DNA of 17,020 nt from a virus, in the IMG/VR virus record IMGVR_UViG_3300045988_053285, positions 1-17,020 of that record, one strand, 5' to 3'. A model generated the notes under the pieces. It saw only the letters and a program-made list of their open reading frames with translations. It made no database searches and had not been told where the DNA came from. Every line of letters starts with the position of its first letter. Within the stretch, counting starts at the first letter, position 1. The translations under genes and the position numbers were made by a program. Shown in pieces: positions 8,448 to 17,020 of this stretch.

Positions 8448-9126
8448 GATCTAAACCCTCTTTTGCTACGTAACCAGTATAAACGTTACCATTAACTACT
8501 GCTTTTACCAGATACCATATTCCGGTATAATACCCATAGTTTCTAACGCCAGTTCCTGTAGGTAAAGTTAAAATTACTGCTTTATCCATTCCAGCACCAA
8601 CACGCAACTTGTAACGATCATTGGTGTGATACGCACCTGCGATTTTTCGATCGAAGCTACGTGCGGGTTCTGCTCTGATTGGCTCTACAATCTCCTGTGG
8701 TTTTTCATTTCCAATATAACGATAATGGACGGTATTTTCATATGGCAGAACGTAATAAGGTCTAACGCATATTTCTCTTCCAGTCTGATCACCTGTCTCA
8801 CCATCAATTCCACCGTTCTCTGACTGACTGGCGTGAACGATGAGTGAAGCGTCCGTTGACATTGTAACATGATGCCCAGCGGCAAGATGAATGTCACCGC
8901 GTTTCCACGGAGCATGGCACTTTTTAAACCCGCACTTGATAAGCTGTGATTCAAGGTTGCGCGTTGTACTATATTTACTGACAGCAAAGCCTGCCTTACT
9001 TAACGCTGTTCCAACCAGTGAACTACAGTCATAGTCCGGACTGTTTCTGTGTACCTGTGAATAACCGTGACGGTCATCGGCGGCAATCTGTTCCGCCCAT
9101 GCTACTGCTGTTTCAATTTTAGGCAT
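8440..9126 (-). CDS. Endolysin: Pal/Amidase_5-like Cys-His amidase plus C-terminal SH3b-like wall-binding domain
   Basis: 228 aa from the ATG at 9126 (RBS AGGAGGTG, 8-nt spacer, ATGCCTAA overlap with the holin stop). AVAWAE...GYSQ...PDYDCSSLV and APWKRGDIHLAAGHH parallel the pneumococcal phage Dp-1 Pal amidase N-terminus as I recall it. The C-terminal YKLRVGAGMDKAVILTLPTGTGVRNYG...WYLVKAVVNGNVYTGYV has an SH3b-like pattern. Confidence 0.8.
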   Translation of the reverse strand: MPKIETAVAWAEQIAADDRHGYSQVHRNSPDYDCSSLVGTALSKAGFAVSKYSTTRNLESQLIKCGFKKCHAPWKRGDIHLAAGHHVTMSTDASLIVHASQSENGGIDGETGDQTGREICVRPYYVLPYENTVHYRYIGNEKPQEIVEPIRAEPARSFDRKIAGAYHTNDRYKLRVGAGMDKAVILTLPTGTGVRNYGYYTGIWYLVKAVVNGNVYTGYVAKEGLDRG

Positions 9127-9337
9127 TATTTTCACCTCCTAGATGAATGCACAAAGAATTGATTGCTAGTGTATTTGCTTCAATGCTCTTACGTAATTCG
9201 GCAACCTCTTCCTTATGCATCTCGTTATCTTCCTCACGCCGCTGTTCTGTTTTCAAGTGATCCCAAAACAGTACACCGCAACACACAATAGGAAATCCAT
9301 ACTGACTGATAAACTGTCCAATCTGTGCTAAATCCAT
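9119..9337 (-). CDS. Holin-like protein (BhlA/UviB-type: one N-terminal TM helix plus charged coiled coil)
   Basis: 72 aa from the ATG at 9337 (RBS GAGAGGTG); the GTG at 9346 is an alternative start. One hydrophobic helix (FPIVCCGVLFW) is followed by a highly charged tail. It lies immediately upstream of, and is translationally coupled to, the endolysin. Confidence 0.6.
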   Translation of the reverse strand: MDLAQIGQFISQYGFPIVCCGVLFWDHLKTEQRREEDNEMHKEEVAELRKSIEANTLAINSLCIHLGGENNA

Positions 9338-9363
9338 TTTCTTCACCTCTCTTTCGTAATTTC

Positions 9364-9392
9364 ATCATAACACTTAGGGTTGATTTTGTCAA
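9364..9392 (-). promoter_or_regulatory. Promoter of the structural/lysis operon
   Basis: On the minus strand: TTGACA (9392-9387), 17-nt spacer, TGT-TATGAT extended -10 (9372-9364). It lies about 25 nt upstream of the holin RBS. Confidence 0.75.
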
Positions 9393-9408
9393 GCTTTTAT
9401 GATATAAT
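9380..9408 (+). promoter_or_regulatory. Promoter of the packaging ATPase gene
   Basis: TTGATT (9380-9385), 17-nt spacer, extended -10 TGATATAAT (9400-9408). It lies about 40 nt upstream of the ATG at 9448. Its -35 box is 1 bp from the -35 of the divergent late promoter. Confidence 0.7.
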
Positions 9409-9447
9409 ATTTTTAGAAACAAAATATTGGAAAGGAAGAATGTTTGA

Positions 9448-10485
9448 ATGTCAAAATATTACGATGGAACGAAACTTCTTTCGCTCAAAGATCTTGACGG
9501 ACAACGACCGGAAATTTATATGGTCACGACAAACCGAACAGGAGGTAAGACTACGTATTTTGGACGGTATTCTGTTCGGCGTTTCATAAACTTCAATGAA
9601 AAGTTCGCACTACTTTACCGGTTTAACTACGAACTGGACAATGTGTCTGACAAATTCTTTAAAGACTTGAAAACTCTGTTCTTTCCTAGTATGGAAATGA
9701 CAAGTAAGAGACTTGCTCATGGTATCTTTCATGAGTTATATCTGGATGAGCGTTCCTGCGGATACGCTATCACATTAAACAGTGCCGATCAGCTTAAAAA
9801 ATATTCGCATTTATTTTCTGACGTTGACCGCATTTTATTTGACGAGTTTCAGTCGGAGACAAACCATTACTGCGATAAGGAAGTAAAAAAGTTCCAGAGC
9901 ATTCACACTTCTATTGCTCGTGGACAGGGAGAACAGACTCGTTATGTTCCTGTATACATGATGTCAAACCCCGTAACTCTATTAAATCCATACTACAGTG
10001 CTATGAAAATAGGAAGTAGATTACAGTCTAATACGAAATTCCTACGTGGAAGTGGATGGGTATTGGAACAAGGTTATGTTGACAGTGCGGCGAAAGCAAT
10101 GAAACAATCTGGTTTTGCAAAAGCTTTTGCCGAAGATGATTACATGAAGTATTCCACCGAAGCCGTGTATCTGAATGACAATTACTCTTTTGTTGAAACA
10201 ATGCAAGGAAAATGCAAGTATGTTTGTACACTAAGATATATGGGAAAAGAGTATGGTGTTAAAGAATATGTAGAAAAAGGTGTGGTGTATGTCGATGATA
10301 AGCCAGACTTAACTTATCCATACAAGATCACAGTTACAACCGAAGATCATCAGATCAACTACTTGATGCTACAGAAGCACGATATATTTATCATGAACAT
10401 GCGTTTTCTGTTCAGCAAGGGTGCGTTCCGGTTCAAGAATCTGGAATGCAAAGAAGCAACGCTGGCGGCGTTGTCGTACAGATAA
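9448..10485 (+). CDS. DNA encapsidation (packaging) ATPase, phi29 gp16-like
   Basis: 345 aa. Walker A is TNRTGGKTT and Walker B is RILFDEFQ. The length and the N-terminal ASCE ATPase plus C-terminal domain layout match phi29 gp16. It is the only convincing plus-strand gene. Confidence 0.85.
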   Translation: MSKYYDGTKLLSLKDLDGQRPEIYMVTTNRTGGKTTYFGRYSVRRFINFNEKFALLYRFNYELDNVSDKFFKDLKTLFFPSMEMTSKRLAHGIFHELYLDERSCGYAITLNSADQLKKYSHLFSDVDRILFDEFQSETNHYCDKEVKKFQSIHTSIARGQGEQTRYVPVYMMSNPVTLLNPYYSAMKIGSRLQSNTKFLRGSGWVLEQGYVDSAAKAMKQSGFAKAFAEDDYMKYSTEAVYLNDNYSFVETMQGKCKYVCTLRYMGKEYGVKEYVEKGVVYVDDKPDLTYPYKITVTTEDHQINYLMLQKHDIFIMNMRFLFSKGAFRFKNLECKEATLAALSYR

Positions 10486-10607
10486 TTATGGTATCTACCA
10501 TTGTTTCATATCATGATAAGAAAGGGTGCCCAGTTGAAAATATACTGCCTTACTTATTTACTGCTAGGCAAGCAGGCGTGGTGTGTTCAGTGGTTAAAGA
10601 TATATGT

Positions 10608-10651
10608 AAGAAGCAGGGATAACTTACCTAGTAAGCTCCCTGCTTCTTTTT
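10608..10651. terminator. Bidirectional intrinsic terminator between the convergent ATPase and replication operons
   Basis: 12-bp stem AAGAAGCAGGGA (10608-10619) / TCCCTGCTTCTT (10637-10648), extended by an inner CTTAC/GTAAG pairing. A T-run follows on the plus strand. It abuts the stop codon (10650-10652) of the last minus-strand gene. Confidence 0.75.
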
Positions 10652-10883
10652 AATTACTCTTAAACAAACCTTTCTTGTATACACGAATTACAAGCCAACC
10701 TCTTAATTTGTCTAGTGTAATGCTCCAGATCATATATTTTTCTGGTTTCAGTTCGTCACAGTAACGTATCATTTTTTCACATCTTCCTTTGAAAATTTCT
10801 TTTCCGTTATCGTAGTCTGAAATATCAATCACTATGCAGTATACAGACGGTGAGATGTATAATCTAAACTCTTCCAGCGTCAT
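10650..10883 (-). CDS. Hypothetical protein (77 aa), last gene of the replication operon
   Basis: The ATG at 10883 has GGAGG 9 nt upstream. The longer ORF-track start (10952) would overlap the upstream gene by 89 nt. No recognisable motifs. Confidence 0.5.
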   Translation of the reverse strand: MTLEEFRLYISPSVYCIVIDISDYDNGKEIFKGRCEKMIRYCDELKPEKYMIWSITLDKLRGWLVIRVYKKGLFKSN

Positions 10884-11268
10884 AGTATTCATCCTCCAAT
10901 TCAATAAAAAGACGGTTATCAAGAACACCAACGGCTTTAATAATTCTTTCACCTAACTTTTCAAATGCCCAGTTGGTCGTAATTTTTTCAAAGAAATAAT
11001 TTTTTTCTGGTCTAACGATAGTAACATCGCTGGTAGTAAGAATCGTGAGTAGTGCTTTCAACTTCATTCCTTTTCCTGTGACGTATTCGGTGTACAGACC
11101 TGTTCCAAACACTTTATTCAGATGATTTTTTACCTCTTTAGTAGAATCATAAATAATTTCTACATTGTTCTTAGGGTCTGCAATTACTAAGCCGTACCGC
11201 ATTGCAAACAGATCAAATGGTGTCAATGTAATTGTTGCTACACTTTTGCTTGATGTTTCAATCTTCAT
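10864..11268 (-). CDS. Hypothetical protein (134 aa) downstream of the DNA polymerase
   Basis: ATG at 11268 with RBS GAGGTG that overlaps the polymerase stop. It occupies the position of the phi29 gene 1 region. No recognisable motifs. Confidence 0.6.
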   Translation of the reverse strand: MKIETSSKSVATITLTPFDLFAMRYGLVIADPKNNVEIIYDSTKEVKNHLNKVFGTGLYTEYVTGKGMKLKALLTILTTSDVTIVRPEKNYFFEKITTNWAFEKLGERIIKAVGVLDNRLFIELEDEYYDAGRV

Positions 11269-11274
11269 TTTTTA

Positions 11275-13260
11275 TCACCTCATTTTATATGTTGTTTCGC
11301 AGAGCAACACGCCGCCGGGAATACGCTTTGGCATCAGCTTTCCGGGAACAGTCATTCCATAAGTAAAATCAGTTAAATCTCTGTGAATAGGTTTGTCAGT
11401 TTCATCGAATAAGAAATCTTTCTCTTCCTCTTTCCAGTCATCCGGTTTTCCTTGCTTATCTTCCATACTTCTGATGAACAGGTCTTTACACTTGCTCGGC
11501 ATGCCGGCACATTTTACATTATAATAAGGGTCAACTTTCTCACCAACCCATTCGTTGTCTTTCAACTCAAGATCTTCTTCAACTACGTGTTCAATGTATG
11601 TTTTCTGACGAGTGAAAATAGCCTTATCCCATTTGCTTTCCAATTTCCAGCAACAAAAAGCTGTGTTGTGTACCTTAATACCCTTTACTTCTTCTGGTTT
11701 TAAGTTACAGTGAATACTATCTGTATCGGCATATATAAAACCTGCTTTGTCTACACCATGATAGTTCGCTTGTGCCGCTCTGATCGTAAAGTTACGTGCG
11801 TAACTTGTTATCGCCGAACCGATCGGTATATAGCCAGGCTGTTTGTCGTGCGCTTCTACGCTACGGAACCCGATTGAGTTGTCATCTTTCAGATATGCTA
11901 CCTTAAATGAACTGTCCGTGCTACTTGCAAACTTCCCGTACAGGTTGTTCAAGAAAAGTTTTGCCAACTGACGCATTGCTCCCTTACTGTTCATTTTAAT
12001 TTCCTTATACTTGTCAATATAAGCATCGAACAAGCCATTTTTTTTCTCAAAATAACAGCCGTCTAGTATTTCAAAATCCTCGACGTCATAGTGTTCTAAG
12101 AAAAGCTTGTAATCTGTCATTGTTAAGGTCAACTCTACAGTGGTTGGAACTTTGTTCATGTTACCATCATAGATGTATCTATGGTATTGTCCATTGAGGT
12201 ATACATCTGAGGTTTCCAGTGCTTCTGTTCCCCTGTACAGAGATGAACCTTTTATCTGGATAAAAGGTAACTTATCTTTATTGAGATAGAAACGTGTTCT
12301 AATCCGAACGAAGAAATATTTTTCGTGCGCTACATCCGGTATAGTTTTCTGGAAGAACACAGGAAATCCTATAGGATAATAGTTACCAGATTCAGAGTGC
12401 ATCATAGACGGATACAATGAATTTACATCAGCAGTTACGCCATCACCATATGGTATACCAGTCTTACCTTTTACAGCATAACACCAGCCACCTTTGTAGG
12501 ACTTTTTAACATACTCACCAGCATTAGAAACGCCATATGTACTCTTGTCGATCTTGAAGTCGTAGAGGTTTGGAAACATCTGATCCCACTCATATACCGT
12601 TTCATGCTCAAATATGTTTTTATATTCTTCCATGCAACACGAACCGATCGTCAGCTTGTTATGACCCTCTGCGAACATGAACTCGATTGCTTCTTTTATG
12701 ACAAGAACGTCGTTCTTAATATACTCAATCTCTTCTGCTGTGATTTCACAACCAGCATATCGCAAACCTTTGTATTCCATTTCAAGTTTACGGTGCTTTA
12801 ACTTAAACGATTCACCGATTGTCTTGACAGAAAATGGCAAAAGCTTTAATGAGTCACGCAACTCAATGAACTTGCCGTTGCCCAAGCGTATTGTAATCGA
12901 GTACCACTGACCTTTATCGCTAATGGAATACTTGAAAGAACGAAAACTCATATCTTTCTCTTTCAACCAGCTTACGCTGTACGATTCAGACGAATTGACT
13001 ACGAAAGATTGTTGATAACCTTGTTTGATTAAGTAATCTATCCAGAAAGAACCATCAAATTTTAAGTTATGAAAATAGCAGATTACGTTACACTTGTAGG
13101 ATGCAAGATGTTTAAGACAATCTCCGATGCTATGCGACACGGTGACTGACTCTGTGTTTAACTCTACTGTAGCCGCCGCCCACACTTCGGTATCAGTTTG
13201 ACCAGCGTATACGGTCGTTTCAAAATCTCCTACAAAATAACGATACTTGCGCTTTTTCAA
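11275..13260 (-). CDS. Protein-primed family B DNA polymerase (phi29 gp2-like)
   Basis: 661 aa with a TTG start at 13260. Exo I is FVGDFETT, Exo II YFHNLKFDGSF, Exo III YIKNDVLVI. Motif A is DVNSLYPSMM, motif B KLFLNNLYGKF, motif C IYADTDSIH, and KxY is RQKTYI. These are nearly identical to the phi29 motifs as I recall them (e.g. YFHNLKFDGAF, DVNSLYPAQM, KLMLNSLYGKF, IYCDTDSIH). Confidence 0.95.
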   Translation of the reverse strand: MKKRKYRYFVGDFETTVYAGQTDTEVWAAATVELNTESVTVSHSIGDCLKHLASYKCNVICYFHNLKFDGSFWIDYLIKQGYQQSFVVNSSESYSVSWLKEKDMSFRSFKYSISDKGQWYSITIRLGNGKFIELRDSLKLLPFSVKTIGESFKLKHRKLEMEYKGLRYAGCEITAEEIEYIKNDVLVIKEAIEFMFAEGHNKLTIGSCCMEEYKNIFEHETVYEWDQMFPNLYDFKIDKSTYGVSNAGEYVKKSYKGGWCYAVKGKTGIPYGDGVTADVNSLYPSMMHSESGNYYPIGFPVFFQKTIPDVAHEKYFFVRIRTRFYLNKDKLPFIQIKGSSLYRGTEALETSDVYLNGQYHRYIYDGNMNKVPTTVELTLTMTDYKLFLEHYDVEDFEILDGCYFEKKNGLFDAYIDKYKEIKMNSKGAMRQLAKLFLNNLYGKFASSTDSSFKVAYLKDDNSIGFRSVEAHDKQPGYIPIGSAITSYARNFTIRAAQANYHGVDKAGFIYADTDSIHCNLKPEEVKGIKVHNTAFCCWKLESKWDKAIFTRQKTYIEHVVEEDLELKDNEWVGEKVDPYYNVKCAGMPSKCKDLFIRSMEDKQGKPDDWKEEEKDFLFDETDKPIHRDLTDFTYGMTVPGKLMPKRIPGGVLLCETTYKMR

Positions 13261-13263
13261 GTG

Positions 13264-14121
13264 TTAGTAATCTCCGTCCATCATATCGTCTAAATCTTCG
13301 AATGAGCGCATAGCATATTCAGACAACGTAAAACCAGCAATACTGCTTAACAGATTGATGATAGCTTGAGCAGACGCTCTTACTAAATCACCGTCAGAAT
13401 CGTAATGAATGATGCCTAGCCACTTCTGGATATCATCCCAGTGGCTTGACAACTCTTCACCCAATCTATTCTTTCCGAGGTCAATCACATTAAAATCTTT
13501 TTGCTGTTCTTTCGGCAACGTTTTCATGATGGTATTACCTACCTCTTCCAGAACTTCATCTAACGCCGATAAAATTTCATTCAAGGCTCTGTTCGCTATC
13601 TCGGCAACCTCCGGTTTTCGCCTTACTCTTTTACCTGTAACAGATGTGTAATAATACACGTCCATTGTCGAGATAATCTCTTTCAGTTTATCCACCAAAT
13701 CATTTACTGCTTGTGCATAAGCTAATGCTGGTACGTCTGTTACAGGTACTTTTGTACCGTCAGTGCTTGTCCAGAAACGCTGTTCTGCTTCTTTGTTCGC
13801 TTTTCTTGTTTCACTGGCTTTCTTTGCTCTTAATTTCCGTTCAAGATTTAAACCCTCTTTGCCGGAAACTATTTCTCCGAATGTCGCTTCGCCACCGTAA
13901 GTAGCTTTTGAATACAATACGTCTTTCGTTAGCTTTTTAAGTCTTCGAATACTAGCTTCAGTTTTACGCTTCGGAATAGACGGAATAAGTGTGTCTGGAA
14001 AACTATATCCACGCTTTTCCGCTCTTCTAACGAACGACTTAAGACGGTTTTGCTCTTTTGCGTAAGCCTTGTTGATAGCTTGTTGTTTTGCGCTCTGTTT
14101 CTTTGCTGTTTTCTTTGCCAC
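13264..14121 (-). CDS. Terminal protein (phi29 gp3-like, by synteny and charge pattern)
   Basis: 285 aa with a GTG start at 14121 (RBS GAGAGGT). It lies directly upstream of the polymerase. The N-terminus is very basic (MAKKTAKKQSAKQQ...RRAEKRG) and the C-terminus acidic (HYDSDGDL...FEDLDDMMDGDY), as in phi29 TP. The presence of ITRs requires a TP. Confidence 0.65.
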   Translation of the reverse strand: MAKKTAKKQSAKQQAINKAYAKEQNRLKSFVRRAEKRGYSFPDTLIPSIPKRKTEASIRRLKKLTKDVLYSKATYGGEATFGEIVSGKEGLNLERKLRAKKASETRKANKEAEQRFWTSTDGTKVPVTDVPALAYAQAVNDLVDKLKEIISTMDVYYYTSVTGKRVRRKPEVAEIANRALNEILSALDEVLEEVGNTIMKTLPKEQQKDFNVIDLGKNRLGEELSSHWDDIQKWLGIIHYDSDGDLVRASAQAIINLLSSIAGFTLSEYAMRSFEDLDDMMDGDY

Positions 14122-14151
14122 TGTTTTTACCTCTCTTTACTATTGATACAA

Positions 14152-14180
14152 GAAAAAGGAGGTATCAAACCTCCCTTTCT
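14152..14180 (-). terminator. Intra-operon intrinsic terminator/attenuator between the SSB-like and terminal-protein genes
   Basis: Minus-strand RNA GAAAGGGAGGU-UUGAU-ACCUCCUUUUUC: a GGAGGU/ACCUCC core stem, extendable by A-U and G-U pairs, running into a U5 tract. It starts 7 nt after the SSB-like stop and ends 31 nt before the TP GTG start. Confidence 0.55.
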
Positions 14181-14186
14181 TATTTG

Positions 14187-14543
14187 TTAACAATGCTGTA
14201 CACTGTTATAGTCTAAGCGACAGTCGATGAAGTCTCGCCCTGCTTTCGTCTTGCCAGACTCTTTAATAATTGCATACGGTTCTCCGCCGAACACCTCATG
14301 AATCTTTTCCAGTGATTTACGGAACGTTGCCGACTGGAAAGCATATACCTTTCCGCTGGTGTCCATGATTGCCGTAATATCGGTGATAGTACCATCTTCT
14401 TTTTCGTCCTCGTAAGAACACCAAACTGATACAGGAATCGAAGTTCCGTCCGGAACATCTTTCATGGACTCTGCACCCTTGTCGACTGTCAGCATGTACT
14501 GTTCAATTTTTGTGAGATCTTTACTTGCTTTTAATACTTTCAT
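14187..14543 (-). CDS. Single-stranded DNA-binding protein candidate (phi29 p5-like)
   Basis: 118 aa from the ATG at 14543 (RBS AAGGAGA); the ORF-track start at 14627 has no RBS. Size and position (between the p6-like gene and TP) fit phi29 gene 5. MKDVPDGTSIPV...TAIMDTSGKVYAFQS...GKTKAGRDFIDCRL loosely parallels phi29 p5 as I recall it (FKNLPDGTIIEA...IFAADGSLYSAIS...GTSSKGNVFFSLQL). Confidence 0.5.
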   Translation of the reverse strand: MKVLKASKDLTKIEQYMLTVDKGAESMKDVPDGTSIPVSVWCSYEDEKEDGTITDITAIMDTSGKVYAFQSATFRKSLEKIHEVFGGEPYAIIKESGKTKAGRDFIDCRLDYNSVQHC

Positions 14544-14661
14544 TTTCGTTTTTCTCCTTATTCTTGTTTTGCTGTGACAAGTGCGGAAAGACCTGTCACC
14601 TGTTTTAAAGACACTACTTTCTTGCACGTATGGTTGAATTTTGAAGTGTTATTACCTACTT

Positions 14662-14943
14662 TTAGTTACGTTTCGGAAGTGGCTCTAACTCAGTCGCATT
14701 GGCGATAAATACAGCTTCTAACATTCCGTAACGTTTTTCGAACGGCTCTACAGCCAGGATTTTCACTACTTTAAAAACTTCTGTATCATGTTCTTTTCGA
14801 ATCTTATTCAAAAGCTTTTCGTCATTGGTGTGCTGTCCCCCGATCTCGTAAGTTACATTGCACGGCTCACAGGTATTTGTGTCCATTGCAAGGACTGTTA
14901 CTTTTGTACCGATTACGGTACGAGTTACCATTGATTCTCTCAT
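14662..14943 (-). CDS. Histone-like double-stranded DNA-binding protein candidate (phi29 p6-like)
   Basis: 93 aa, ATG at 14943, RBS AAAGGAGG. It is the first gene of the replication operon, like phi29 gene 6. VVKILAVEPFEKRYGMLEAVFIANAT parallels my recollection of phi29 p6 (VQVVSVEPNTEVYELPVEKFLEVAT). Confidence 0.5.
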   Translation of the reverse strand: MRESMVTRTVIGTKVTVLAMDTNTCEPCNVTYEIGGQHTNDEKLLNKIRKEHDTEVFKVVKILAVEPFEKRYGMLEAVFIANATELEPLPKRN

Positions 14944-14991
14944 TTCCGTTTTCCTCCTTTTCTTGTTTTGTTGTTTCGGAAATTATTTTTA

Positions 14992-15117
14992 CCAGACGTC
15001 AGAACTCGTCTGGAAGAGCGACCGCGGTGATGAACCGCGTTAAGTCGGCTTGCCGCTCAAGAGGTGGGCGGTTTGGCGTGCCGCCCTAACAGTGTAGTAA
15101 GATCTTTCGTTCTTACT
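14992..15117 (-). ncRNA. Structured GC-rich untranslated RNA (candidate pRNA-like packaging RNA or regulatory leader)
   Basis: It starts at the predicted TSS of the consensus promoter at 15124-15152. Four helices are visible by eye on the minus strand. AGUAAGA/UCUUACU spans 15117-15111 / 15102-15096. GGGCGG/CCGCCC spans 15086-15081 / 15071-15066. GAGCG/CGCUC (15058-15054 / 15020-15016) encloses CGCGGU/ACCGCG (15039-15034 / 15028-15023). CCAGACG/CGUCUGG spans 15013-15007 / 14998-14992 and is followed by UAAAAAUAAUUU. No ORF with an RBS is present. The region is far more GC-rich than its flanks. Confidence 0.4.
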
Positions 15118-15123
15118 GTATTT

Positions 15124-15152
15124 ATTATACCTCTTAACACTTATTTTGTCAA
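15124..15152 (-). promoter_or_regulatory. Consensus sigma-A-type promoter in front of the structured RNA and replication operon
   Basis: On the minus strand: TTGACA (15152-15147), 17-nt spacer, TATAAT (15129-15124). Both hexamers are perfect. Confidence 0.8.
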
Positions 15153-15214
15153 GCGTTTTGCATAAATATTTAAATATTTTGTTATAAAGTTAGTTTAGAC
15201 TAACTCGAGCCGTA

Positions 15215-15313
15215 TTACCCAAAAATCATTGCTGTATAGCTAAACACGATAATATCGTAAATCAATGCGACGATTATTAAAAGCTGTAAAATTCGTAAAA
15301 GTTTTATTTTCAA
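15215..15313 (-). CDS. Small hydrophobic peptide (32 aa, single predicted TM), below the ORF-track cutoff
   Basis: TTG start at 15313 preceded by AAGGAGA (15326-15320) with a 6-nt spacer. My translation is MKIKLLRILQLLIIVALIYDIIVFSYTAMIFG, ending at a stop at 15215-15217. It is followed by an AU-rich hairpin (15188-15193 / 15200-15205). Confidence 0.4.
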   Translation of the reverse strand: MKIKLLRILQLLIIVALIYDIIVFSYTAMIFG

Positions 15314-15336
15314 AGCTTTTCTCCTTTTCTAAAATA

Positions 15337-15597
15337 CTACGCTCCTGTGTAGTAGATTTTTCGTTCCTTGTTTACATGGTCGATAGCTGTGTAAACTGGT
15401 TTCGGTTTGTTTCCGGTGACATACGACATAATGCCGTTTCCGTCACTGTCAAGAATGCAGATTTTGACACGTTCGTCGCACTCGGAAAATAACGTGATTG
15501 ACTTTCTGGCGCACGATAACACGTTTTGAAATGTATCGGTGCGATATGTAACCATTGATAAATGACCACCTATGTAAAACTTGATCTTGTATTTCAT
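15337..15597 (-). CDS. Hypothetical early protein (86 aa)
   Basis: ATG at 15597 with RBS AAAGGA 7 nt upstream. Same strand and spacing as neighbouring early genes. No recognisable motifs. Confidence 0.6.
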   Translation of the reverse strand: MKYKIKFYIGGHLSMVTYRTDTFQNVLSCARKSITLFSECDERVKICILDSDGNGIMSYVTGNKPKPVYTAIDHVNKERKIYYTGA

Positions 15598-15643
15598 ACT
15601 ATTTTCCTTTCCGCCCGTTTTGCCACTTGTCGGCTATGCAAGT

Positions 15644-15811
15644 TTATAATTCGATTGTAAAAATCTCACCATTTGAACCTATTACGTCATACGTAATAAG
15701 ATACTCTAACCTATTCGATAGATATTCATAAAGTTCATGAAATTCACCTTTTACCACAAAGTGCTTAAGGAAACCATCTTCATCAAAATATGAAACACTA
15801 TATTTTGTCAT
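15644..15811 (-). CDS. Hypothetical small acidic early protein (55 aa)
   Basis: ATG at 15811 with a strong RBS (AGGAGGTG); the ORF-track start at 15868 lacks an RBS. It has 10 Asp/Glu against 4 Lys/Arg. Confidence 0.6.
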   Translation of the reverse strand: MTKYSVSYFDEDGFLKHFVVKGEFHELYEYLSNRLEYLITYDVIGSNGEIFTIEL

Positions 15812-15889
15812 ATTTACACCTCCTTTATATTCACTTCCACGTAGCCTGTACATTTTAAATACTTGCAAGATACGTAAAACATGTTGTGG

Positions 15890-16024
15890 TCAGCGTCCAA
15901 AATATTCGCTAATATTGTTCTCTTCATTTTTTATGCACTCTAATGCAAGTTCCGATAACATTTGAATGAACGTGCAGTTGTAAACTCTGATACCGACTTT
16001 CTTAATTTCCACGTAATATTCCAT
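15890..16024 (-). CDS. Hypothetical small early protein (44 aa), below the ORF-track cutoff
   Basis: The ATG at 16024 overlaps the TGA of the upstream gene (TGATG coupling), with GGAGAGAGGTG upstream. My translation is MEYYVEIKKVGIRVYNCTFIQMLSELALECIKNEENNISEYFGR. It fills an otherwise unexplained 155-nt gap. Confidence 0.4.
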   Translation of the reverse strand: MEYYVEIKKVGIRVYNCTFIQMLSELALECIKNEENNISEYFGR

Positions 16025-16353
16025 CACACCTCTCTCCATACAAGACACTCGGCACAATCCCATTTTCCTGCACCGTAGTCATGACGGAACTTTGCGATGT
16101 GCTGGGCTGATGTGGATGTATAGCCGTAGACCTTTCTAAGAAAGTCATAACAGCTATCATCCTGTGTATCAATTACAGCTACTATAGTTCTGTAGCTTTT
16201 AAGGATGTAGAACTGCCCTAATTTGCAAACACATGCAGAACAAGTTCGTAAACGTTTCCATTCTGATGCTCTCTCGTGCATATCAAGGCTGTAAATTTCC
16301 TCATAAATTGCGTCAACCTTTTTATTAATTTCTAGCTGTTCTTTCTTCGTCAT
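16024..16353 (-). CDS. Hypothetical Cys-rich early protein (109 aa)
   Basis: ATG at 16353 with RBS AAGGAGGT and a 7-nt spacer. It contains CSACVC and CAEC, a possible zinc-binding pair, plus SYRTIVAVID...YGYTSTSAQHIAKF. I cannot assign it to a family. Confidence 0.65.
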   Translation of the reverse strand: MTKKEQLEINKKVDAIYEEIYSLDMHERASEWKRLRTCSACVCKLGQFYILKSYRTIVAVIDTQDDSCYDFLRKVYGYTSTSAQHIAKFRHDYGAGKWDCAECLVWREV

Positions 16354-16423
16354 AACAATGACCTCCTTTTCTGTTTTCAGACCGGACTATTCCGGTAAAG
16401 TCACCTCCGCGCCGCTGGTATGA

Positions 16424-16606
16424 CTAATTATCCGAAAAAAATCGGTCAAATAACCGAGTGTCACCGTCGTAACACTTTACTGTTACGTAACAGTGCTGTT
16501 TATGAGCCAGCTTCTCAATGATGGTGCAATCTTTATGAACCTCATCCAGATTGTCCTCTACAATAATGCTTCTTTTTCCATTGCAGACAATCAGTAATTT
16601 GTACAT
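16424..16606 (-). CDS. Hypothetical early protein (60 aa), first ORF after the right-end promoters
   Basis: ATG at 16606 with AGGAGG 9 nt upstream; the ORF-track start at 16642 lacks an RBS. No recognisable motifs. Confidence 0.55.
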   Translation of the reverse strand: MYKLLIVCNGKRSIIVEDNLDEVHKDCTIIEKLAHKQHCYVTVKCYDGDTRLFDRFFSDN

Positions 16607-16822
16607 TCCTATTTTCCTCCTATTCATTATATAAATCTGCATATAACCTGTCCAATTCTGCCCATTTTGCTCTCCTCATTCGAGTATGCCATTTATGAAA
16701 GACGATCTCGACACGTCCCGTGAACTCCAATCCATTGTGTTCACTCAGTTTGGTGTTTATAGCCGTCACCGCTAGGCTTGCTACTAATTTGCACTAGCAG
16801 CTTTTCCTTACCTTGTACCTAT

Positions 16823-16851
16823 ATTATAGCACAGGTTTGGTAGTTTGTCAA
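16823..16851 (-). promoter_or_regulatory. Right-end early promoter, proximal copy
   Basis: On the minus strand: TTGACA (16851-16846), 17-nt spacer, TGC-TATAAT extended -10 (16831-16823). It is a perfect consensus. Confidence 0.8.
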
Positions 16852-16916
16852 GTACTTGTTTTCACTATCTGAAGTGTTATCCTGTACTTAACTCCCTTTC
16901 CTTACCTTGTAACCAT

Positions 16917-16945
16917 ATTATAGCACAGGTTTGACAGTTTGTAAA
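16917..16945 (-). promoter_or_regulatory. Right-end early promoter, distal copy
   Basis: On the minus strand: TTTACA (16945-16940), 17-nt spacer, TGC-TATAAT (16925-16917). It lies 94 bp upstream of the proximal copy. Confidence 0.75.
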
Positions 16946-17000
16946 GCTGTCAGTTTGCACAATATTTTGCTGTAGTTTTTGTACAAATGGGAGAACTGAC

Positions 17001-17020
17001 AAGGGGGGTCTATTTTTTAC
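17001..17020. repeat. Right inverted terminal repeat (ITR)
   Basis: AAGGGGGGTCTATTTTTTAC is the exact reverse complement of bases 1-20. Confidence 0.95.

Follow-up and report, generated by a model that had tools for sequence, protein, structure and literature searches.

A structured early leader with a tRNA-like minihelix ahead of the replication genes of a phi29-like gut phage

On the minus strand of the virus record IMGVR_UViG_3300045988_053285 a strong early promoter reads into a GC-rich, untranslated stretch (positions 15,117 to 14,992), and the question raised by this locus is what such an RNA does in front of replication genes. The window, that is, the whole stretch of DNA analysed (17,020 nucleotides), is a complete 17-kb phi29-like phage of gut Firmicutes. 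A first-pass annotation had proposed that the locus specifies the packaging or prohead RNA (pRNA) of the phage, with a cis-regulatory leader of the replication operon as the fallback. Structured and untranslated, the stretch forms the 5' leader of the early replication operon, which encodes a p6-like protein, a single-stranded DNA-binding protein (SSB), a presumed terminal protein and DNA polymerase, and its third hairpin (H3) is a tRNA-like minihelix, in which a 7-bp acceptor-type stem is stacked on a 5-bp T-type arm. The fallback was right in outline, and overlooked this tRNA-like element. The leader belongs to a family-wide, previously undescribed placement of tRNAs or tRNA stubs ahead of p6-like genes.

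The leader and its third hairpin

The promoter described in the first-pass annotation holds up at 12/12 positions and is one of just two such matches in 9000-17020. Transcription is predicted to start at about A15117 on the minus strand, and the claim that the following stretch is untranslated was borne out as well: the interval from the promoter to the ATG at 14943 holds no minus-strand open reading frame (ORF), which leaves an ORF-free leader of ~175 nt. Its GC content (0.50-0.55, compared with 0.28-0.43 in the flanks) is likewise as had been reported. The minimum free energy (MFE) of the leader is -48.3 kcal/mol versus -34.4 +/- 3.7 for 200 dinucleotide shuffles (z = -3.8), none of which (0/200) was as stable. 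Both RNAfold and the RNAalifold consensus give four tandem hairpins within 15117-14992, with the ends unpaired. The four helices that had been drawn by eye are thereby recovered, whereas the nested "junction" is not, the structure concerned being an asymmetric 12-nt internal loop in H3. The features of the leader are as follows.

15124-15152, minus: sigma-70-type early promoter; -35 TTGACA at 15152-15147, 17-nt spacer, -10 TATAAT at 15129-15124
15096-15117, minus: H1 hairpin, AGUAAGA/UCUUACU, flush with the predicted 5' end; 97% of cells paired
15066-15086, minus: H2 hairpin, invariant GGGCGG/CCGCCC with loop YRYGCCAAN; 100% paired
15058-15016, minus: H3 as a whole, GAGCGGC-AAGCCGACUUAA-CGCGG-UUCAUCA-CCGCG-GUCGCUC
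15052-15058, minus: H3 acceptor-like 5' strand, GAGCGGC
15040-15051, minus: H3 linker, 12 nt, AAGCCGACUUAA, standing where the D and anticodon arms would be
15023-15039, minus: H3 T-arm-like hairpin, CGCGG-UUCAUCA-CCGCG; 5 bp, 7-nt loop
15016-15022, minus: H3 acceptor-like 3' strand, GUCGCUC, with no spacer to the T-like stem, giving a 12-bp stack
14992-15013, minus: H4 hairpin, CCAGACG-AGUUCUGA-CGUCUGG, beginning 2 nt past the discriminator position
14941-14991, minus: A-rich spacer with the conserved CCGAAACAAC, an AGGAGG ribosome-binding site (RBS) at 14958-14953 and the ATG at 14943-14941

The geometry of H3, in which the acceptor-like 3' strand is followed by U15015 at the discriminator position and then U15014, with no CCA, arises in only 36/5000 dinucleotide shuffles of the leader (0.7%). 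ARAGORN finds 0 tRNA genes in the window. What links H3 to tRNA is its equivalent position in the leaders of relatives, described below, together with a match to GGUUCA; it carries no sequence trace of any particular tRNA. The loop, UUCAUCA (clade consensus NUCAYYA), has U at position 58 and so departs from the T-loop pattern U-[U/G]-C-R-A-N-N; the UUCAU variant recurs in L073, L076 and L077.

Comparative evidence came from relatives that had to be reached through the polymerase, since a blastn search with 14600-15400 gave no match to a deposited phage; polymerase-based searches yielded 118 related loci (numbered L001 onward). The leader is present in 13 close relatives, at 77-95% identity over the region, and in their alignment 98.7% of cells are paired. 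The search for compensatory substitutions suggested in the first-pass annotation proved productive, with such changes in 5 pairs (4 in H4, 1 in the outer stem of H3), as against 0.7 in shuffles and 0-2 in slid controls. Those in H4 affect 4/7 of its pairs (in L010, L012 and L013), while in the acceptor-like stem of H3 pair 5 changes from G-C to A-U in L013 and pair 6 is G-U, A-U or U-U. The H1 loop is variable (GAAA/GAUA/GUUA). H2 never varies, and hence provides no covariation evidence. The -35 element of the promoter is invariant and the -10 element nearly so among the 13 relatives, and L001 has a 21-nt deletion in the equivalent of the spacer at 14941-14991. H4 has no U-tract, is followed by UAAAAAUAAUUU and receives no call in a terminator scan; it is thus not a terminator, and the RNA continues into the mRNA.

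Several other candidate pairings were rejected. A small AAG/CUU stem that RNAfold draws within H3 is broken in L008 and L010-L012, pairing of AAGAGGU (inside the promoter) with ACCUCUU varies without compensation, an ACAGU/ACUGU pairing around H1 is lost in L013, and the 5' strand of H2 could pair with the 3' strand of H3 in L013 through G-U pairs only. The complementarity proposed earlier between GUUCU in the last hairpin loop and AGAAC also dissolves in the relatives, seven of which have AGAGC while L008 and L011 have GUCCU, and AGAAC itself lies partly inside H1. Rfam 15 contains no family that matches the leader, even at E <= 10, above chance level, the chance-level match being to SprD (18.9 bits, where the gathering score is 100) and lying on the other strand.

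tRNAs and tRNA stubs ahead of p6-like genes

A tRNA origin for H3 is suggested by seven distinct relatives (L014-L020, 64% polymerase identity), in which ARAGORN identifies a tRNA-Met(CAU) exactly at the H3 position. Their leader is collinear with that of the window, comprising promoter, an TATAATAAATA start region, H1-type and H2-type hairpins, and CCGAAACAAC before the RBS. In L014 and L015 the tRNA-containing leaders are headed by the same promoter and have an H1-equivalent hairpin (GUAAUAAG/CUUGUUAC); the hairpin at the H2 position is longer in this clade, with a CCAAAC loop, and shows one compensatory change between L014 and L015. The spacer motif CCGAAACAAC is likewise found across the L014 clade. 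In a MAFFT alignment with the L014 tRNA-Met, the H3 linker falls, gapped, opposite the D and anticodon arms.

Other clades have minihelices of unrelated sequence and the same geometry just upstream of the p6-like gene (the L022 group, L032, L037, L038 and many more). Examples are UGCUACC...UUUGGG-UGCAAUU-CCCAAA-GGUAGCA in the L022 group and UCCCGGA...GAGGGG-UUCGACU-CCCCUC-UCCGGGA in the cultured Clostridium phage CS229P2 (L037), and a minihelix is also present in MT835814 (L038). Textbook T-loops (UUCGACU, UUCAAAU, UUCGAAU) are frequent among them. In most of these phage elements the D and anticodon arms are gone and the linker is 10-31 nt long. The elements of L037 and L038 lie between two cistrons and are promoterless, as is a second minihelix in the close relatives of the window, L006 among them. 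This second element (UGCAUAG...GGUGG-UGCAAUU-CCACC-CUAUGCA, then UU and a hairpin) stands upstream of the orf86 homologue, and is intact at these positions.

L006, 968-1013: second minihelix, intact
L005, 686-731: second minihelix, intact
L010, 237-282: second minihelix, intact
L013, 842-886: second minihelix, intact

The window retains just its 5' half, at 15621-15640 on the minus strand (UGCAUAGCCGACAAGUGGCA), which indicates that such elements are gained, trimmed and lost.

The breadth of the association was assessed in 94 non-duplicate loci, with the slot defined as the 300 nt upstream of p6-like genes (39.6 kb in total). The covariance model built from the close clade (R1) finds no match in distant clades, because that clade is too narrow, and the distant equivalents emerged from inspection of the sequence ahead of p6-like genes and from a stem scanner written for the purpose. 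Because MAFFT cannot align the 5' acceptor strands across the variable linkers, a shuffle test took the place of a covariance model for the minihelix class. The scanner finds 72 elements in the slot (1.82 per kb) versus 120 in the other 1.95 Mb, both strands counted (0.062 per kb), an enrichment of ~30-fold; when a U[U/G]C[A/G]A loop is required the counts are 47 in 39.6 kb versus 11 in 1,947 kb, and all 11 are on the early-gene strand. ARAGORN tRNAs give the same picture across the 118 loci, where all 16/16 tRNA-bearing loci have the tRNA upstream of a p6-like gene, and these tRNAs differ in identity (Met, Lys, Gln, Leu). The median distance from element to start codon is 68 nt. Position 74 is U in 43/58 unique elements, and a hairpin begins 1-7 nt past the acceptor strand in 31/58.

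A direct case of a tRNA losing its anticodon arm, with both stems retained, is provided by L049 and L051. The two have common acceptor, D-arm and T-arm sequences, an 18-nt deletion takes out the anticodon arm, and the stems are kept by compensation (GGGUGC/GCACCC to GGGUGU/ACACCC, and ACGGG/CCCGU to ACUGG/CCAGU). Separately, some ARAGORN "tRNAs" of 80-93 nt are odd (L049 1102-1181, L050 981-1061, L064 1987-2079, L067 1903-1994): that of L050 has a 4-base anticodon, and the calls switch between Phe(AAA) and Leu(UAA) in near-identical contigs. These may be non-decoding pseudo-tRNAs that are turning into minihelices. Many relatives have two paralogous p6-like genes (e.g. L038 1126-1413 and 2299-2568; L022 1497 and 4230), and in such relatives the tRNA or minihelix is usually ahead of one copy only; the window has a single p6-like copy.

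The window is taken to be a complete linear genome because it is bounded by a 20-bp inverted terminal repeat (GTAAAAAATAGACCCCCCTT, at 1-20 and 17001-17020). It has phi29-like domains (Phage_connector, phi29 gp9, Phi29_MCP, Podovirus_Gp16 and DNA_pol_B_2), and its nearest deposited relatives are human-faecal contigs and the Clostridium (symbiosum) phages CS229P1-3, at ~60% polymerase identity. The replication operon downstream of the leader reads as follows.

14662-14943, minus: p6-like gene, 93 aa, first gene of the replication operon; weak PHROG match to a dsDNA-binding protein (E = 0.004)
14187-14627, minus: p5-like SSB; Phi29_Phage_SSB, E = 6e-5
13264-14121, minus: presumed terminal protein, after the SSB gene
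11275-13260, minus: DNA polymerase; DNA_pol_B_2, 1.4e-42

Directly upstream of the leader promoter lies an ORF for a 32-aa hydrophobic peptide with a good RBS (15215-15313, minus), and a weak hairpin comes after it. The right genome end has two tandem, near-identical minus-strand promoters, at 16945-16917 (11/12) and 16851-16823 (12/12), each followed by GGUACAAGGUAAGGAAA, and from 16816 to 16655 there are doubtful small ORFs only. Just past the perfect promoter of this pair is a hairpin (GCUGCUA-GUGCAAAU-UAGUAGC, 16780-16801, minus), whose loop UGCAAAU is the T-loop-like motif of the second minihelix class.

The packaging RNA question and an RNA behind gp16

If the leader were the prohead RNA, a discrete RNA of ~125 nt would form a ring on the portal and dock the gp16 ATPase. 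The locus has its own strong promoter, a size near 120 nt and a GC-rich, stable and conserved fold, and the genome does encode the gp10-type portal and gp16-type ATPase that the first-pass annotation had named, as the domain matches attest. The structural hallmarks of a pRNA are nevertheless missing at this site: the 5' and 3' ends are unpaired and no A-helix closes a domain of ~120 nt, nor is there a three-way junction from which a D hairpin and a C/E arm, bulged on its 5' side (the CE bulge), could extend. When unpaired segments are matched in all 21 combinations, the shortest Watson-Crick run among the 12 relatives is 1-3, at least 4 being required. The Rfam pRNA model RF00044, which scores 145.4 bits on phi29's own pRNA as positive control, gives no match to the leader at its gathering threshold, at E <= 1 in the window or at E <= 10 in 14850-15250, and no terminator precedes the RBS. 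Equivalents of the leader element are promoterless and intercistronic in L037, L038 and L006, or are real tRNAs elsewhere. Lastly, the premise that the genome has no other pRNA locus fails, since a separate RNA with the full pRNA architecture lies behind gp16, and in light of all this the pRNA reading of the leader is scarcely credible. The features at the alternative locus are these.

10490-10605, plus: pRNA-like RNA, 116 nt, directly after the gp16 ATPase gene; 101.6 bits with covariance model R2
10609-10650, plus: strong terminator, which closes the pRNA-like RNA

The gp16 stop (10485) is separated from the convergent gene by 165 nt, whose fold has z = -4.9. The two ends of the RNA pair with each other in an A-helix (GGUAUCUACCAUUG.../...CAGUGGUUAAAGAUAU) that leads into a three-way junction. 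Arm 1 has a 5+4-bp helix, the 5'-side bulge GUGCC, a 4-bp helix and an UGAAAAUAU loop, and is followed by a UUA junction; arm 2 is CUGCU-AGGCA-AGCAG. The order of the elements is the same as, and the helix lengths are nearly the same as, in the Rfam pRNA consensus. The strand is fixed by G-U pairs.

Covariance model R2, for which 16 diverse seeds were used, detects a single full-length copy in each of 89/100 sources, always just past gp16 and on the same strand, with cultured CS229P2 included; among the 100 sources it has no match in L031, L034-L036, L078, L080, L084 and L087-L090. Pairing in the A-helix segments is 94-99.6% and compensatory changes there are numerous, the helix covariation score is 0.462 versus 0.149 for shuffled alignments (0/500 reach it), and the E helix occurs in 15 distinct 4-bp versions. 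The E and D helices were examined in each sequence individually, and the unaided MFE fold has the pRNA architecture in 62/83 distinct sequences; RNAalifold on the 89-sequence alignment (A5) returns the A-helix only, because the E and D helices are one column off there. The arm 1 bulge is complementary to the arm 2 loop, and the two covary, as UGCC/GGCA in the window, CGCC/GGCG, CUGUA/UACAG (CS229P2) and AGACA/UGUCU, and further among the relatives UAAGC/GCUUA, UAGCA/UGCUA, GGAA/UUCC and AACC/GGUU, the last of which we take to be the pair used by phi29 itself. The mean Watson-Crick run between these CE and D loops is 3.83 versus 2.90 +/- 0.11 in permuted pairings (maximum 3.30), and 0/3000 permutations reach it.

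RF00044 does not detect the RNA at 10490-10605, and R2 threads onto the true pRNA coordinates of phi29 at a non-significant 6.1 bits, so that this is a distinct family with pRNA architecture, whose homology to RF00044 is not established. The RNA is an analogue or a very distant homologue, outside the curated RF00044 family, and judged on its sequence and covariation it is likely to be the real pRNA of the window phage and its group. The pRNAs recorded in reviews and in a 2025 Infernal survey all come from Bacillus and Cytobacillus phages (PMC5066667, PMC11476376, PMC12670572), and a literature search found no report of the RNA at 10490-10605. A pRNA in Clostridia-type phages would extend RNA-dependent packaging motors well past the Bacillus/Cytobacillus group and would supply ~50 natural variants of the interlocking loops; it may matter more than the leader finding.

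Two observations concern the region behind gp16 in relatives. In L034-L036 a different gene directly follows gp16. A 16-bp perfect palindrome (TGTTTCACGTGAAACA) occurs in 1-5 copies in 32/119 related loci (e.g. L037 5780-5795, L049, L050, L051 and L031), often between the gp16 stop and the pRNA-like RNA, and is absent from the window even with 2 mismatches allowed. From its sequence it looks like a candidate operator or protein-binding site.

Proposed processing, rival readings and known systems

For the leader itself, a little short of an even chance is given to the reading in which it is an operon 5' untranslated region carrying a t-element-like RNase P/RNase Z processing signal, H3, flanked by hairpins that would stabilise RNA ends. 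Because H3 is probably tRNA-derived, the leader most likely acts through RNA processing and not through riboswitch-type regulation, and with the decoding arms replaced by a minihelix in the window, only a processing role would remain. The module that is kept in every version is the acceptor/T part, which is read by RNase P, RNase Z and the CCA-adding enzyme, and several features are compatible with cutting by RNases P and Z, namely the lack of CCA, the U at position 74 and a leader of >30 nt. Precursors without CCA are cleaved after the discriminator by the RNase Z of B. subtilis, RNase P being the first to act if the 5' leader exceeds ~30 nt (PMC1874595). Plant mitochondria form mRNA ends through RNase P and RNase Z cuts directed by tRNAs, t-elements and acceptor-like stem-loops that lie beside genes (PMC1920247). 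It is from the B. subtilis rules and the mitochondrial precedent that the cuts at G15058 and U15015 are proposed.

Transcription from the strong promoter would begin at ~15117, flush with H1, which would act as a stabiliser of the 5' end of the primary transcript. The predicted cut by host RNase P lies 5' of G15058, and that by RNase Z follows the discriminator U15015, where the next base is U and there is no CCA. The products would be a ~60-nt H1-H2 fragment and a 43-44-nt minihelix, and H4 would come to stand at the head of the replication mRNA, where it would shield the new 5'-monophosphate end from 5' exonucleases. In the relatives a tRNA or minihelix, usually with a hairpin, would punctuate polycistronic early transcripts ahead of p6-like genes and would thereby make the p6-like message independent of the upstream genes in amount and stability. 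A bolder version, which is rather improbable, is that small gut phi29-like phages have converted tRNA genes into a dedicated system of RNA punctuation, in which minihelices devoid of decoding parts, each with a hairpin downstream, bring in host RNase P and RNase Z to divide the early polycistronic transcript just before the p6-like gene. The minihelix (perhaps CCA-tailed) and the H1-H2 fragment, once released, might then survive as small RNAs with functions of their own, for instance as decoys for host factors that read the acceptor/T arm.

Several points weigh against processing. The mechanism rests on analogy, with the cuts themselves inferred. Its main weakness is the loop of the window clade, which lacks the canonical A58 of a T-loop and is variable at its first base, making H3 the least tRNA-like of its class. 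Rfam tRNA-clan models give no match to H3 at E <= 10; in the relatives they score a canonical-looking minihelix (L059) at 20 bits, E = 0.058, with the tRNA-Sec model and do not match the tRNA-sized element of L031, and are thus unusable as a membership test. About half of the relatives' p6-like genes have no detectable upstream element (68 "none"), and the 46% clade (L034-L036) is without any leader, so that the element is dispensable; the minihelices of L022 and L032 lack a following hairpin. Finally, conservation of the unpaired bases in the H2 loop, the H3 linker and the H4 loop exceeds what a bare cutting signal requires, a pattern for which recent ancestry alone may account in so closely related a clade.

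The same conserved loop and linker bases, together with the covarying H4 stem and the location directly behind a strong early promoter and ahead of replication genes, are what would be expected of an uncleaved cis-regulatory leader, whose hairpins would bind a phage or host protein (for example in translational autoregulation by the p6-like protein or SSB) or serve as a put-type antitermination RNA. This is unlikely, and still to be reckoned with: it leaves unexplained why real tRNAs (Met, Lys, Gln, Leu) and unrelated minihelices occupy the same slot and why the acceptor/T geometry alone is retained after loss of the anticodon arm, and H1, H2 and H4 are not conserved beyond the near clades. 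A riboswitch or transcription attenuator that senses a metabolite or tRNA would fit a structured GC-rich leader upstream of an operon, and the resemblance between the 5' strands of H2 and H3 (GGGCGGC and GAGCGGC) makes alternative pairing formally possible; as that pairing would rely on G-U pairs only in L013, as no Rfam family appears at E <= 10, and as neither a terminator nor an RBS-sequestering helix is present, the chance of such a switch is very small.

The two remaining readings take the tRNA resemblance as their starting point. An excised minihelix, perhaps CCA-tailed, might act in trans as a tRNA mimic, engaging as decoy or ligand a host factor that reads the acceptor/T arm, such as EF-Tu, the CCA-adding enzyme or a defence nuclease directed at tRNA; early expression from a perfect promoter and the upkeep of the acceptor/T module by compensatory changes after the decoding parts are gone would suit such a role, and many elements start with UGG and finish with CCA, presumably as in tRNA-Gln acceptor stems. 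It is quite doubtful, in that the tight positional tie to one gene class (the median of 68 nt to the start codon) favours a role in cis, the acceptor sequences are too diverse for any single identity to be mimicked, and we know of no defence system that aims at anticodon-less minihelices. Alternatively H3 could be a neutral relic, a decaying and functionless tRNA gene among hairpins that are generic 5'-untranslated structure. The visible series from tRNA through degenerate tRNA to minihelix, the half-deleted second copy at 15640-15621 and the non-canonical loop of the window clade all suggest decay, yet in the 13 relatives compensatory or wobble changes leave both stems of H3 fully paired, the same 12-13-bp geometry recurs in the same slot in dozens of minihelices of unrelated sequence, and the chance expectation in the leader is 0.7%, all of which leaves the relic only a slim probability.

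Were processing by RNases P and Z true, the leader would be the first bacterial-virus counterpart of organellar t-elements, in which a 15-18-kb phage sets the ends of its replication mRNA, and hence its stability and dosage, through host tRNA-maturation enzymes, with tRNA genes caught during reduction to a minimal RNase P/Z substrate. It would also explain the odd single "tRNA" in some tiny phi29-like genomes, mentioned without explanation in a 2024 review (PMC11476376). The processing model is directly testable, because cultured relatives exist in the Clostridium phages CS229P1-3, which grow on C. symbiosum.

Placement of tRNAs upstream of or between ORFs, such that RNase P and RNase Z excision separates the messages, is familiar from the tufB operon of E. 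coli and from animal mitochondrial transcripts. The L014 clade, with tRNA-Met in the leader, has exactly such an arrangement, whereas the window has a non-decoding minihelix instead of a tRNA. In the MALAT1 mascRNA and the TMERs of murine gammaherpesvirus 68, a tRNA-like structure is followed by a hairpin and RNase P and/or RNase Z cut at the borders. The tRNA-like element of the window is likewise immediately followed by a hairpin, but those systems are eukaryotic, transcribed by Pol II or Pol III, with a triple helix or pre-miRNAs downstream, while here the RNA is a bacterial mRNA. The C4 RNA of P1/P7 and the CI RNA of P4 are phage RNAs matured by host RNase P at an acceptor-stem-like helix; they are antisense or immunity RNAs released in trans, and nothing in the leader of the window indicates an antisense target. 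The prohead RNA of the phi29 family (RF00044) resembles the leader in its similar length, its phi29-like genome and a strong early promoter, and differs in that the leader lacks the A-helix, three-way junction, CE/D loops and terminator and is continuous with the mRNA.

The plant mitochondrial t-elements (Forner et al. 2007, PMC1920247) also comprise tRNA-like structures within mRNA precursors beside coding regions, and there, too, canonical tRNAs and reduced mimics are interchangeable at such sites. The T-arm motif of that comparison, GGTTCRANYCC, is present in many of the phage elements and not in the loop of the window. The setting differs, an organelle as against a Firmicutes phage, as does the standing of the cuts, which are known in the mitochondria and proposed here, and most phage elements, unlike the t-elements, have dispensed with the D and anticodon arms.

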